Source of the DNA: Myxococcota bacterium
Lineage (GTDB): Bacteria; Myxococcota_A; Polyangia; Nannocystales; Nannocystaceae
NCBI GenBank assembly: GCA_039028615.1
Contig: JBCCHT010000042.1
Location: forward strand, 43,701-107,700
Reading direction: 5' to 3'
Length of the DNA stretch: 64,000 bases
Position 1 is the stretch's first letter. Every line of letters begins with the position of its first letter. Both the position numbers and the translations under genes were made by a program. Below, piece after piece: positions 13,921-46,970 of this stretch. Below the pieces are notes generated by a model. That model was not told where the DNA came from. It searched no databases and was given only the letters and a program-made list of their open reading frames with translations.

Positions 13921-15474
13921 TCAGCGTGCGATCGCGTCCGCGATGCGAATGCCGTCGAGCGCCGCGCTCATGATCCCGCCCGCGTAGCCCGCTCCTTCAC
14001 CGCACGGGTAGAGCCCCGCCACCGACGGCGATTGCAGGCTCTCGCGATCTCGATCGGTGCGCACGGGCGCGCTGGTCCGGGACTCCACCCCCACCGCGAT
14101 CCCTTCCGCCGACACGAAGCCCGGCATGCGCTCCCCGATGCGTCGCAGCGCCTCGCGCAGCGGCAGCGCCAGCCCGCCCAGCAGCTCGTCGAGCCGAGCC
14201 GAGGCCAGCCCTCGCGGGTAGCTGCAGACCGGCAACGCCGACGAGCTCCGTCCCGCCACGAAGTCGTCGATCCGCTGCGCGGGCGCGACATAGTCCCCGC
14301 CCCCCGCCTCGTACGCCGCCGCCTCGATCCGTCGCTGCAGCTTCAACCCCGCGAACACGTCGCTCGGATCGAGGCCCGCCGCCTCGAGCTGCGTCGGTCC
14401 GACCTCCGTCACGAACCCCGAGTTCGCGTACTTGCCTCGCCGTGACGAAGGGCTCCAGCCGTTGACCACCTGTCCCCCGTGCTCCGTCGCGGCCGGCACG
14501 ATGAACCCTCCCGGGCACATGCAGAACGAAAACGCTCCCGCGCCTTCCGCCTGCTCCACCAGACGATAGGCCGCGGCTCCCAGCGCCGGGTGCCCCGCCA
14601 GCCCTCCGAACTGCAGCCCATCGATCAACGGCTGCGGATGCTCCACCCGGAACCCCACCGCAAACGGCTTCGCCGACAACGCCACCCCGGCCTCGTGCAG
14701 CCACTGCGTCACATCCCGGGCCGAGTGTCCCACCGCCAGCACCACCGCCCGCGCATCGATCGTCTCCTGCTCCAGCCGCACCCCGCACACGCGCCCGTCC
14801 TTCACCACCAGCCCATCGACGCGCCGCCCGAACGCAAACTCCACCCCCGCGCTTTCGAGATGCTCCCGCATCGCCCCCACCACGCCGGGCAGGCGATTGG
14901 TCCCGATATGCGGCCGCGCATCCACCAAGATCTGCGACGGCGCCCCGTACCCCACGAACGCATCCAGCACCCGCTGCATGTCCCCCCGCTTGTGCGATCG
15001 CGTGTACAGCTTCCCATCGCTGAACGTCCCCGCCCCTCCCTCACCAAAACAGTAGTTGCTCTCCGGATCGAGCTGCCCCTGCTTGCTCAGCGCCGCCAGA
15101 TCCCGCCGTCGTGGCCGAACCGGCTTCCCCCGCTCCAGCACCACCGACCGAATCCCATGCTGCGCCAACGCCCACGCACAAAACGTCCCCGCCGGCCCCG
15201 CCCCCACGATCACCACCCCGGGTTCCCCACTCAACGTCGGAAGATCCACCGGCCCCCGCTCACTCGAGCTCGGCTTCTCTTCCCCCCGCATCACCAACTC
15301 CACCTCCAGCTGCAGCTGCACCCGCCCCCGCCGAGCATCGATCGACTTCCGCCGAACAACCGCCGCCACAACCTCCTTCACCCCCACCTTCCCCCGCTTC
15401 GCCGCCGCCCGACGCAGCCCCTCCTCATCAAAAAGAAGATCTGGATGAACCCGCAACTGAACCCGACGTCCCAC
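13921..15474 (-). CDS. FAD-dependent oxidoreductase (COG2509-type)
   Basis: IVGAGPAG, FGEGGAGTFSDGKL, PHIGT, FCMCPGG, GEGAGYAGGIMSAALDG. Confidence 0.92.
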   Translation of the reverse strand: MGRRVQLRVHPDLLFDEEGLRRAAAKRGKVGVKEVVAAVVRRKSIDARRGRVQLQLEVELVMRGEEKPSSSERGPVDLPTLSGEPGVVIVGAGPAGTFCAWALAQHGIRSVVLERGKPVRPRRRDLAALSKQGQLDPESNYCFGEGGAGTFSDGKLYTRSHKRGDMQRVLDAFVGYGAPSQILVDARPHIGTNRLPGVVGAMREHLESAGVEFAFGRRVDGLVVKDGRVCGVRLEQETIDARAVVLAVGHSARDVTQWLHEAGVALSAKPFAVGFRVEHPQPLIDGLQFGGLAGHPALGAAAYRLVEQAEGAGAFSFCMCPGGFIVPAATEHGGQVVNGWSPSSRRGKYANSGFVTEVGPTQLEAAGLDPSDVFAGLKLQRRIEAAAYEAGGGDYVAPAQRIDDFVAGRSSSALPVCSYPRGLASARLDELLGGLALPLREALRRIGERMPGFVSAEGIAVGVESRTSAPVRTDRDRESLQSPSVAGLYPCGEGAGYAGGIMSAALDGIRIADAIAR

Positions 15475-15631
15475 GACTTCCCCCCGTCATCTCATGAACC
15501 CGCCCCCCGGTCCATCCACCCACCACCCCCGAAGGGAACAACACCCACCCTGCTCCAAACAAGTACCCCACGGCAAAACCCACCCCATCCCCGAGCAGCA
15601 ACCAACCGACCCCTTCGTTCGAACATTTCCA

Positions 15632-15944
15632 CCCACTCCAAGCACTCCCGCCCCTCACCCAAGCACCCCACCGAACCTCCAAGCAAGCCACCCCCCACCC
15701 AAGCAGAACCCACCCCACCGCCCGAACGGAAGCCGCCGTACGGGGAGGGCCAAAGCGAAGCCGCGTAGGATGGAGGGGGCCCGGTCGCGCGGAGGCGGCC
15801 GCCGACGACCGTCGAGAAACACCCGGGTATCATGGCCGCCGAGCACGTCCGGGAAGGGTTCCAGCCGTCAACAGGCGAGCCCCTGGTTCGAACACATCAC
15901 TCCCACTCCAAGCACTCCCGCCCCTCACCCAAGCACCCCACCGA
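15632..15944 (+). repeat. 43-bp direct repeats flanking repeat A copy 1 (15632-15674 and 15902-15944)
   Basis: CCCACTCCAAGCACTCCCGCCCCTCACCCAAGCACCCCACCGA is identical on both sides, each preceded by GTTCGAACA. Confidence 0.88.
15721..15894 (+). repeat. Dispersed repeat family A, copy 1
   Basis: Core GCGAAGCCGCGTAGGATGGAGGGGGCCCGGTCGCGCGGAGGCGGCCGCCGA...GGCCGCCGAGCACGTCCGGG(A/G)AGGGTTCCAGCCGTCAACAGGCGAGC shared with three other loci. Confidence 0.93.
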
Positions 15945-16011
15945 GCTCTCCGTTCGAACACTCCCCAACCCCCCTTCGCGCAACCAGAAATCCCCCCACC
16001 GCGAGCAAACT

Positions 16012-17139
16012 TCAAGACCCCGAAGAAGGCCCAGACGCCACCAACAACCCCGCCGCCACCGCCTTGCTCCGCATCGCATGCAACATCCGTCCCCGGTCCG
16101 CCGTATCCCGCCTCCACTTCCTCCCAAGCTTCGCCCGCACATCCGGGTTCAACCCCAACCTCCGAGCCCGCTTCCGAAAGTTCGCATTCGGCCCCACCGT
16201 CGCACAGTGCCCCCGCGAGAACCGACGATTCACCGTCGCATACGAATCCCCAAACCCTTGCGCCTCACACTCCCGCTGCGCCGTCCGAGCGGCCCAAACC
16301 GCGGTGATGATCGCCACCAACCCGTTGTCATCACAAAACACCCAAGGCGGCGCACTCGAATCCCAAACCGGCACAAAGTACGCCGGATTAAACCCAAAGG
16401 GCCCGTATCCAAATGCCCACGCCGGCTCCGACCCCGGCGAGACCGAGCCGTCCGTCGCCGTCACCTCGAACTCGATGATGTCGTCGAGATACGGGTTGTC
16501 GCGAAAGGTCTGCACCTGATGCAGCCGCGCCTTCGCCTTCCAGTACTCGCTGTCCTGCTTGCTCAACTTGGCCATGTGGGCCTGCAGCTCCGCCTCTTCG
16601 GTCGGCGAGTAGTGCAGGCGTCTCCATGCCGCGGTCGCGGCCTCGATGTCGGGATTGAGCACGTGCATGGCGTGCGGCCGATAGGTCGACTCCCGCATCG
16701 CCCACGCTCGAATCAGCCGCGGCTCGGCCCCCATCTCCTTGGCGACCAAGGTCACCAATTGAGAGAAGCGCTTCTCGTCGGCCTTGGTCCACGGACGACG
16801 GACTCGCTTGTAGCGACGACGACCCTCGTCATCGATCTTCACCCGCACGCGCTCGCACTGGTTGGGCGCACGACCCTTCAGGGTGGCTCCCTTGGCGGAG
16901 GCCAGCACGGGGGTGGGAGCCTCGGCGGCAGACGGAGCGCCCGCCTCGGTACCTTCGTCGGCATCGGCGGCCGCAACCACGGGCTGCGTTCGGGTCTCGG
17001 TGGCCGGATCTCCGGGGCTCGACGGAGCATCGACGTGCTCGACCTCGGCCTCCACGTGAACGACCTCGTACTCGGGCTCGCCCCCGGGGCCACACGATAC
17101 GACAGCGAAGATGCAGCCAAGCACGATAGCTCTGCCCAT
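16012..17139 (-). CDS. Lipoprotein with lytic transglycosylase (SLT)-like motif
   Basis: Lipobox VVSC; AKEMGAEPRLIRAWAMRESTYRPHA resembles SLT motif I with catalytic Glu. Confidence 0.6.
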   Translation of the reverse strand: MGRAIVLGCIFAVVSCGPGGEPEYEVVHVEAEVEHVDAPSSPGDPATETRTQPVVAAADADEGTEAGAPSAAEAPTPVLASAKGATLKGRAPNQCERVRVKIDDEGRRRYKRVRRPWTKADEKRFSQLVTLVAKEMGAEPRLIRAWAMRESTYRPHAMHVLNPDIEAATAAWRRLHYSPTEEAELQAHMAKLSKQDSEYWKAKARLHQVQTFRDNPYLDDIIEFEVTATDGSVSPGSEPAWAFGYGPFGFNPAYFVPVWDSSAPPWVFCDDNGLVAIITAVWAARTAQRECEAQGFGDSYATVNRRFSRGHCATVGPNANFRKRARRLGLNPDVRAKLGRKWRRDTADRGRMLHAMRSKAVAAGLLVASGPSSGS

Positions 17140-29737: not shown

Positions 29738-29819
29738 GGCGGGGTCTTTGTTTGTGTAAGTAGGGGGTTGTTCGAGGAGGGGAGTGTTTCGCGTGGGAGC
29801 CGAGAACCTTCGAGCGAAA

Positions 29820-29980
29820 GGCTCGCCTGTTGACGGCTGGAACCCTCCCCGGACGTGCTCGGCGGCCGTTTCAGCGGAGTGTTTCGAAACGGGTTCGGCG
29901 GCCGCCTCCGCGCGACCGGGTCCCCTCCATCCTACGCGGCTTCGCTTCAGCCCTCCCCGCACGCTTCCTCCCGTTCGGGG
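29820..29980 (-). repeat. Dispersed repeat family A, copy 2
   Basis: Reverse complement of the copy 1 core, between convergent genes. Confidence 0.93.
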
Positions 29981-46045: not shown

Positions 46046-46321
46046 GGGTTCTGCTTCGAACGGAACGCTTGTTGAATTTTGCTTGGGCGGGGGGGTGCTT
46101 GCTTCGAGAACGTTGGTGAGTGTTCGAACGAGCGGCTCGCCTGTTGACGGCTGGAACCCTCCCCGGACGTGCTCGGCGGCCGTGGTCGCGGAGTGTTTCT
46201 CGGCGGGTGTCGGCGGCCGCCTCCGCGCGACCGGGCCCCCTCCATCCTACGCGGCTTCGCTTCAGCCCTCCCCCGGCACCGGCTCCCGAGCGGAGGGGGG
46301 TTGCGCTCTGCTAGAGCGACG
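46043..46321 (-). repeat. Dispersed repeat family A, copy 3 (left arm of inverted pair)
   Basis: Reverse complement nearly identical to 46722-46970. Confidence 0.95.
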
Positions 46322-46721: not shown

Positions 46722-46970
46722 CTCGCTCGAGCAGAGTGCGACCGCCCCCCGTTCGGGAGCCGGTGCCGGGGGAGGGCTGAAGCGAAGCCGCGTAGGATGG
46801 AGGGGGCCCGGTCGCGCGGAGGCGGCCGCCGACACCCGTCGAGAAACACTCCGCGACCACGGCCGCCGAGCACGTCCGGGGAGGGTTCCAGCCGTCAACA
46901 GGCGAGCCGCTCGTTCGAACACTCACCAACGTTCTCGAGCAAGCAGCCCCGCGCCCAAGCAGAACCCTCA
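46722..46970 (+). repeat. Dispersed repeat family A, copy 4 (right arm of inverted pair)
   Basis: Same core as copies 1-3; extended identity to copy 3. Confidence 0.95.

Follow-up and report, generated by a model that had tools for sequence, protein, structure and literature searches.

Repetitive extragenic palindromes (REPs), built from units of a few tens of nucleotides, are together with bacterial interspersed mosaic elements (BIMEs) and REPINs the described sequences closest to the repeat treated here, a long hairpin element in a 64,000-nucleotide window (the whole stretch of DNA analyzed; G000:C42:43701-107700) of the 12.3-Mb, 94-contig genome of a Myxococcota bacterium of the family Nannocystaceae. 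The repeat is flanked on both sides by a zone, termed the halo, in which one DNA strand is depleted of C. This halo is real, strong, and anchored to the element, and it is apparently undescribed; full-text searches, with most subscription journals outside their scope, yielded no account of such halos. The role of the RAYT/TnpA-REP enzymes and their palindromes inside the cell has long been open, their activity being known mainly in vitro. According to the accessible text of two papers, TnpA-REP binds and processes a single strand, the one bearing GTAG, and its cuts fall both 5′ and 3′ of the hairpin, including at distant positions (PMC8266576, PMC3333891).

As far as REPs, BIMEs, REPINs, and the TnpA-REP enzymes (RAYT groups 2 and 3) are covered by the accessible portions of PMC8266576, PMC3333891, and PMC5581495, the repeats of this genome resemble them in being extragenic, dispersed, imperfect hairpins with a GTAG foot (families A and B) and in forming inverted doublets and tandem arrays; on this likeness, strand-specific recognition is expected for the present repeats as well. 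They work like REP/BIME ends but depart from them in two defining features, since the units measure 130 to 170 nt and no cognate tnpA-REP gene lies beside the copies. Judged from its sequence, the repeat is best explained as a putative long, non-autonomous REP/BIME-like hairpin.

The halo around the repeat in the window

The + strand of the window is poor in G from approximately 14000 to 16500, the repeat core excepted, and its GC skew over 14400-16450 amounts to -0.37 (standard deviation, 0.056), with 3 of 24,195 genome windows of 2,050 nt being equally extreme. A first-pass annotation of this DNA had reported such a G-poor tract of about 2 kb, and the codons it quoted from the two flanking genes, encoding a flavin adenine dinucleotide (FAD)-dependent oxidoreductase and an SLT-like protein, are present in the sequence. 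Specifically, the + strand contains 236 G and 504 C in 14400-15474, 28 G and 125 C in 15475-15714, 13 G and 61 C in 15896-16011, and 92 G and 193 C in 16012-16450; the core (15715-15895) is unskewed with 68 G and 61 C, and 217 G and 242 C are found in 16451-17139. The depletion along 13921-17139 is graded rather than uniform, as the fraction of C at third codon positions (C3) falls toward the repeat in both genes, from 0.34 in codons 401 to 500 of the FAD gene to 0.02 in codons 1 to 50, and from 0.46 in codons 1 to 50 of the SLT-like gene to 0.04 in codons 351 to 375. The halo is lopsided, extending approximately 500 nt to the right of the element and at least 1.5 kb to the left, where codons 1 to 300 of the FAD gene make up the long (3′-side) arm with a tail reaching approximately 14100. 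The depletion affects the strand complementary to the forward-written core, as had been predicted.

Five congeners, whose fetched orthologue loci contain no element of families A to D, show normal C3 in these genes, so that the depletion is not one shared with orthologues lacking an adjacent element. In codons 1 to 100 of the FAD gene, C occupies 1 of 66 four-fold degenerate sites here versus 23 to 36 of 67 to 74 sites in all five congeners; over codons 1 to 200 it occupies 6 of 126, the congeners having 19 to 36 per approximately 65 to 74 sites in each 100 codons. For codons 301 to 375 of the SLT-like gene the count is 0 of 47 versus 17 to 24 of 45 to 52 in four of four congeners and one confamilial genome, and for codons 251 to 375 it is 2 of 73. 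Fisher tests against the pooled congeners, which are not independent of one another, give P values of 7e-19 (FAD) and 9e-11 (SLT). Where the congeners agree on C at a four-fold site of the FAD halo, the present genome has G at 24 sites, T at 1, A at 2, and C at 3; at the corresponding two-fold sites it has T at 9 and C at 20. The comparison was also made in the reverse direction with congener G004, whose seven element-side genes keep the diagnostic base at 147 of 478 aligned sites versus 278 of 478 in their element-free orthologues here; the tally counts six genes and leaves out one pair of less than 50% identity, one gene 2.6 kb from its element, and three genes with no orthologue. The same polarity is seen at five of five copies in G004 and at two metagenome loci (L162 and L183).

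Repeat families in the genome

A BLAST search with the window copy returned 82 matches in the genome, 66 of them of at least 140 nt, and 58 copies were aligned; a related family, B, was added by profile search. The skew itself led to two further families, C and D, which were seeded from skew peaks lacking A or B and then extended by sequence; these seeds are circular evidence because they were picked from skew peaks. The working set comprises 140 copies (105 of A and B, 20 of C, and 15 of D, some partial) in 68 clusters, all of them long, imperfect, extragenic, and dispersed hairpins with cores of 130 to 170 nt. Among 88 A/B copies scored, the tetranucleotide at the base of the stem, 5′ in the written orientation, is GTAG in 71, GCAG in 14, and a different one in 3; the GTAG foot is absent, by eye, from the C and D consensus sequences. 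The inner stem of A/B covaries across 98 distinct copies (5.36 versus 3.92 pairs of 6; 0 of 500 shuffles, which ignore relatedness), while folding of the whole element is no better than that of shuffled sequences (z = 1.08 and 0.35). Neighboring copies are arranged as -+ in 32 cases, -- in 20, ++ in 19 (39 tandem cases in total), and +- in 1, convergent pairs thus being almost never found; -+ is also the commonest doublet among E. coli REPs and BIMEs. Divergent pairs enclose unrelated cargo or nothing, and a search for a cargo gene shared among them found none. One divergent family-B pair contains a low-GC macro-like gene with a TIR/SEFIR-like part, recognized by eye (G000:C18:62629-63645), an indication that such pairs may serve for the exchange of cargo.

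The A/B pattern occurs in 3 of 73 genomes of the family. Rfam gave no match in the window and none in five related loci at E ≤ 1, and viral contigs gave no match. In planctomycete records the A/B inner hairpin lies directly (approximately 30 nt) upstream of genes for 116-residue four-helix-bundle proteins (TIGR02436), with no halo and no Rfam match (L108-L111, L115, L121, L125-L127, L130, L133, L139, L152, L169, L174, L175, L182, L191, and L192). At these loci the ribosome-binding site lies in the 3′ arm of the stem, and several have 7-mer tandem repeats upstream. Many other planctomycete pattern matches look like chance. Some loci possibly represent DNA already included among the congener loci and were therefore not counted separately.

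Polarity, spectrum, and reach of the halo

In the following, N denotes the GTAG-bearing strand and S its complement, the depleted strand. The + strand is G-poor on both sides of forward copies and G-rich around reverse copies. Codon tests on 8,237 gene calls show that genes sense to S have, within 300 nt of an element, C fractions of 0.23 at four-fold sites, 0.51 in codons ending in a pyrimidine (NNY), and 0.49 at the first position of leucine codons, versus 0.51, 0.84, and 0.84 far from elements. Antisense genes within 600 nt on the 3′ side mirror this, with G at 0.16 to 0.17 versus 0.39 at four-fold sites and 0.50 to 0.52 versus 0.85 in codons ending in a purine (NNR), and G at third positions (G3) is below expectation in 10 of 10 single-orientation clusters with a 3′-side antisense gene (observed/expected [O/E], 0.12 to 0.81). 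The first-pass annotation had cautioned that in every clearly affected gene the depleted strand was also the sense strand; because antisense genes show the mirror loss of G3, the halo is not a sense-strand bias. A part of the caution stands on the 5′ side, where the neighboring gene has S as its sense strand at 73 of 83 elements and antisense genes are clearly depleted at only 3 of 10 loci; for both reasons, read-through transcription may be needed. The effect follows the element and not the position in the gene, as first proposed.

A joint fit to 204,429 synonymous sites gave natural-log weights relative to G, next to the element, of -2.1 for C, -1.3 to -1.7 for A, and approximately 0 for T; on S, C is thus reduced approximately 8-fold and A approximately 4- to 5-fold relative to G, with T unchanged. 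The effect reaches approximately 0.6 to 0.7 kb 5′ of the element and 1.6 to 2 kb 3′ of it and decays smoothly; between 0.8 and 2.5 kb 5′ of the element there is a small excess in the opposite sense, for which partner copies probably account. Of 93 scored elements, 76 have an O/E below 0.85. No replichore effect is seen (0.59 for 38 leading-like versus 0.61 for 40 lagging-like strands). The base following C is without influence (odds ratios, 0.22 to 0.30), and the preceding base shows only a weak preference (TpC, 0.4 to 0.65 versus 0.13 to 0.30), part of which is explained by the leucine and valine codon boxes. Codon positions 1 and 2 lose C as well (0.246 versus 0.274 and 0.240 versus 0.260), with fewer proline and threonine codons, and intergenic DNA and the start of the downstream gene are altered likewise. 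The 3′ ends of 567 convergent genes with no element and gene starts, taken as controls, are flat, and the tRNA genes, scored collectively over 87 calls after removal of those lying inside genes, have no halo (O/E, 0.90 to 1.08). In an unbiased scan for halo-like segments, 81 of 227 lay within 2.5 kb of a copy, a zone covering 2.8% of the genome, and 70 of these 81 had the predicted polarity. Three simple explanations were rejected: replication-linked GC skew, as the polarity does not follow the replichore; plain transcription-associated mutation, as it does not follow gene sense and the tRNA class is flat; and avoidance of CT targets by a nuclease, as there is neither a CT-specific depletion nor a context effect.

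Several single loci were noted in the course of this survey. A cluster of parS-like palindromes near mnmE/rsmG-like genes (G000:C18:14700-20100) has divergent halos, the right-side one being opposite to the replichore skew further along the contig. A strong halo lies on the sense strand of a tRNA-Ser gene that has a small hairpin repeat behind it (G000:C11:155620-156900); upstream skew is also seen at a tRNA-Ile (C1:315802) and a tRNA-Phe gene (C21:6288), most tRNA genes having none. tRNA arrays are found at G000:C3:258280-258720 (four tRNA-Ser calls and Tyr) and C27:171191-172230 (seven mixed tRNAs). A gene of the uracil-DNA glycosylase family (G000:C54:79159-79674) ends 115 bp from a family-B copy and within its halo.

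Features of the window

The features of the window are compiled in Table 1. The SLT-like gene has no match in Pfam or NCBIfam; its Atlas look-alikes, at 0.90 to 0.91, include SLT clusters, which serves as a lead only. The degenerate, coreless copy of the element's left flank, read by eye, may be what is left of a tandem unit. The family-A copy at 15715-15895 lies between the two copies of a perfect 43-bp direct repeat; direct repeats of at least 18 nt were found around only 1 of 22 solitary elements. This repeat is presumably recent because it is still perfect inside a fast-changing halo. In the probable source run one contig joins 15631 to 15902 across the 270 bp, which is either a real empty allele or an assembly artifact; the contigs of two runs contained no usable polymorphism.

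Table 1. Coordinates of the repeat copies and adjoining features in the window (O/E, observed/expected)
Feature	Position	Strand	Remarks
FAD-dependent oxidoreductase gene, 517 aa	13921..15474	-	PF21688, E = 5e-60
SLT-like gene, 375 aa	16012..17139	-	codons ~215-375 (16012-16500) in short (5′-side) halo arm
Degenerate left-flank copy of element, lacking the core	15548..15631	+	read by eye
43-bp perfect direct repeat, copy 1	15632..15674	+	
43-bp perfect direct repeat, copy 2	15902..15944	+	
Family-A copy	15715..15895	+	conserved core ~15742-15882; + is the non-depleted strand here
GTAG tetranucleotide, 5′ foot of hairpin	15765..15768	+	on the non-depleted strand
Inner imperfect hairpin, fixed mismatches, variable covarying inner stem	15780..15853	.	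predicted from fold and covariation
Second family-A copy, reverse	29809..29979	-	weak halo on + strand, O/E 127/174
Family-A copy, left arm of divergent pair	46120..46273	-	strong halo on + strand, O/E 5/51
Family-A copy, right arm of divergent pair	46742..46922	+	
Family-D hairpin copy at contig end	63757..63998	+	O/E 93/114

RAYT-like Y1-HUH genes

The genome contains two RAYT-like Y1-HUH genes (contigs C13 and C8), whose 310-residue products score above the cutoff of PF01797 and below that of REP_Tyr_transpos (NF047646; 34 bits, cutoff 80). The HuH and Tyr motifs are kept in 14 of 14 aligned Y1 proteins, with H66, H68, and Y126 invariant; no solved structure matched the Y1 alignment. On either side of both genes there are short repeats and a halo in which S points toward the gene, as in divergent pairs, and within 300 nt C is found at 19 of 226 sites (O/E, 0.14). 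Homologues occur in 35 of 73 genomes of the family, and 40 loci were fetched from 17 genomes chosen for long contigs. In the sister genus g14, 21 of 40 scorable flanks have an O/E below 0.75, antisense genes included, with C at 0.32 versus 0.50 at four-fold sites and 0.57 versus 0.82 in NNY codons. Divergent genes upstream of RAYT-like genes are depleted on the template strand (1 of 46 and 15 of 83 sites), while the gene-start control is normal. The RAYT-like genes (L200-L239 and L245-L274) lie between tandem arrays of short repeats that are specific to each locus and have a 14-nt motif in common; in three g14 genomes this motif gave 130 matches and the reversed control 4, and most of the matches adjoin the transposase or a contig end. 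Family-1 ung is present in the halo genera g1 (5 of 5) and g14 (11 of 11) and absent from g15, g13, and g10.

Other candidate enzymes were considered as well. IS91-type Y2 genes are absent from this genome, and six of nine such congener loci checked by eye show no halo. Skew seen at the IS200-like loci of G002 was not counted because it is accounted for by coding skew in the low-GC islands that contain these loci; at one of them (L102; G002:C63:24753-28103) the IS200-like gene is flanked by two convergent FGE-sulfatase-like genes with 102 nt of inverted similarity, presumably of C-lectin fold, which resemble target genes of diversity-generating retroelements (DGRs). DUF559 is absent from the genome, and three GIY-YIG genes were found.

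Mechanism and alternatives

That the effect is anchored to the element we regard as practically certain. The halo is probably the mutational footprint of S being repeatedly single-stranded or serving as a gap template, a context-free loss of amino bases on one strand being expected from single-strand exposure or gap-template miscoding. Processing by RAYT-like Y1 HUH enzymes is a plausible source of this exposure, though somewhat short of a probable one. A RAYT-like nuclease would bind and cut N on both sides of the hairpin, and removal or resection of N would leave S bare; should such a related enzyme take away stretches of N, the polarity seen would be the expected one. C on the exposed S would deaminate to U and give C>T changes, Ung excision and lesion bypass would add C>G, and deamination or miscoding of A would add A>G, the two halo arms corresponding to two processing directions. 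A balance calculation under assumed spectra gives boosts of 5.0 for C>T and 2.0 for A>G and demands a direct C>G boost of 4 to 7 unless G>T makes up approximately 55 to 60% of the background loss of G; the substitution spectrum on the element tree gave no usable signal. Altogether, we offer it as a tentative possibility that the REP-like hairpins, together with RAYT-like Y1 nucleases, constitute a hitherto undescribed system of hypermutation, targeted by repeats and specific to one strand, the nucleases opening kilobase gaps in vivo and the exposed strand being rewritten by deamination, Ung, and bypass synthesis.

A number of observations weigh against this proposal. No copy of families A to D lies near either Y1 gene here or in the 31 and 40 (partly overlapping) RAYT-like loci scanned; the RAYT-like genes carry their own short repeats, and the GTAG-like word at their loci is, by eye, on S and not on N. 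The congeners G004 (88% complete) and G002 (95%) have haloed copies and no member of this RAYT-like family, and G004 has no PF01797 match at all. RAYT-like flanks in g15, g13, and g10 are haloed in 1 of 24 cases, the single flanks in G005 and G007 have no halo, and A is not depleted in g14. Direct C>G change is unproven, as the general time-reversible rate fit is degenerate and recent polarizable paralogues do not exist, paralogue pairs being too few; the C>T-only halo predicted for ung-lacking hosts was not seen, and the link between ung and the halo, seen in few and related lineages, is only a lead. In the unbiased scan, 146 of the 227 halo-like segments have no known copy within 2.5 kb, among them a set around the parS cluster; 15 are at contig ends and 10 near tRNA genes, one orphan adjoins an internally deleted copy, another lies at a contig join to a copy, and many weak remote segments may be atypical genes. 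Finally, in a 424-kb sample of E. coli K-12 (117 REPs in 41 clusters), the REPs show at most a weak trend: on the strand toward the cluster, C is at 0.91 to 0.95 and G at 1.15 to 1.17 of expectation within 400 nt and at 1.03 to 1.06 and 1.07 to 1.13 further out, and no signal is found on the strand set by the nearest GTAG. At one E. coli locus (L275:12359-14071), lfhA is poor in C at its 3′ end, next to the rayT REPs (11 of 60 versus 86 of 197 for four-fold C/(C+G)), and yafL is not.

The main rival, to which we assign a real if clearly minor likelihood, is a hairpin-stabilized R-loop that requires no transposase: transcripts from upstream would cross the element, and the displaced non-template S, folding or held by host proteins, would deaminate, the loop spreading approximately 0.6 kb back and 2 kb forward. 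It stays alive because most elements are preceded by a gene in the S sense, as counted above, and 7 of the 10 loci with an antisense 5′ neighbor are little depleted there; moreover, S folds better than N in 17 of 18 family-B cases (DNA parameters), and halos occur in genomes with no RAYT-like family and at the parS cluster. Conversely, the flat tRNA class speaks against it, as do the element at C1:32373, where both neighbors are antisense to S and both sides depleted (0.43 and 0.28), the template-strand depletion upstream of RAYT-like genes, and those planctomycete hairpins that are transcribed in the S sense and yet have no halo. That the element instead recruits an enzyme deaminating or modifying C on one strand, as a bacterial counterpart of targeted AID/APOBEC hypermutation, would suit the 8-fold size, sharp anchoring, lineage restriction, and C>G share of the effect; the lack of a 3′ context preference, the weakness of the 5′ one, and the parallel fall of A in this genome make it unlikely. 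Selection for C-poor, G-rich RNA beside the hairpin, for instance to avoid Rho loading or mispairing with the stem, accords with the fact that most affected 5′-side genes are transcribed into the element, yet antisense genes, downstream gene starts, and intergenic DNA are affected alike, codon positions 1 and 2 lose C, and the decay is smooth over kilobases, so that we hold it to be quite improbable.

If RNA of the S sense were reverse transcribed with errors and the cDNA returned, in the manner of DGRs or retrons, template C and A would be miscopied. The planctomycete four-helix-bundle genes preceded by the same inner hairpin encode proteins that we take to resemble DGR Avd, which would favor this route, and the titles (Lampson, Rice) cited in PMC6868368 point to repeats resembling multicopy single-stranded DNA (msDNA) from Nannocystis. 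It is nevertheless very unlikely: no PF05635 gene was found in this genome, the sole reverse transcriptase found is of the retron type and has no A to D copy in its 3.6-kb locus (L021), C loss exceeds A loss, both sides are affected, and the planctomycete copies have no halo. The absence of A to D matches at L021 likewise led us to reject an origin of the repeats from the msd of the resident retron; the reverse transcriptase gene (L021:1255-2803) lies between WGR-like genes and has a 29-bp inverted repeat upstream. Reverse causation, in which sites already single-stranded on one strand attract oriented insertion, would explain halo-like segments with no known copy and an orientation that follows the upstream gene; syntenic element-free orthologues are normal in both directions of comparison, however, and orphan halos lie beside a deleted copy and at a contig join to a copy, leaving this reading highly improbable.

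Implications and relation to known systems

Whatever its cause, the halo is a 5- to 8-fold local change of mutation pressure on one strand at approximately 140 sites, which alters the codon use and, slightly, the amino acids of ordinary genes and can pass for horizontal transfer or selection. An oriented, readable footprint would allow the action of RAYT/TnpA-REP enzymes to be mapped from sequence alone. If the hypermutation system is real, the site, strand, and range of action of domesticated transposases are recorded in genomes, and cargo between divergent hairpins evolves under raised mutation.

Unlike the REPs of E. coli, the present repeats have a strong mutational halo, of which the accessible portions of PMC8266576, PMC3333891, and PMC5581495 make no mention. 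The haloed Y1 genes resemble the TIRYT and subclass 2.1 and 2.3 proteins described in the accessible part of PMC6006769 in their length (310 aa), their HuH and Tyr motifs, and their short inverted or tandem repeats in place of REPs; halos around such genes are not mentioned in that part.

With regard to element-directed local change, the halo is akin to the action of DGRs, and the hairpin is common to four-helix-bundle loci elsewhere. DGRs bring about element-directed local hypermutation in bacteria; in contrast to them, there is here no template/variable repeat pair, no DGR-type reverse transcriptase, and no Avd-like gene, C and not A is dominant, and housekeeping genes are hit at silent sites. 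Hypermutation by AID/APOBEC, UNG, and REV1 produces strand-coordinated patches of C>T and C>G in single-stranded DNA, and the halo shares with it the strand-coordinated C>T and, probably, the C>G; it differs in having no context signature and in being bacterial, and no enzyme is named, a deaminase search not having been made. Strand asymmetry of replication and transcription and the gradient of the mitochondrial heavy strand involve a shift from amino to keto bases on the exposed strand, and the halo likewise loses C and A and keeps G and T; unlike these asymmetries, it is local (2 to 3 kb), repeat-anchored, several-fold stronger, and independent of replichore and gene sense. The halo is thus a new, local form of a known mutational signature.

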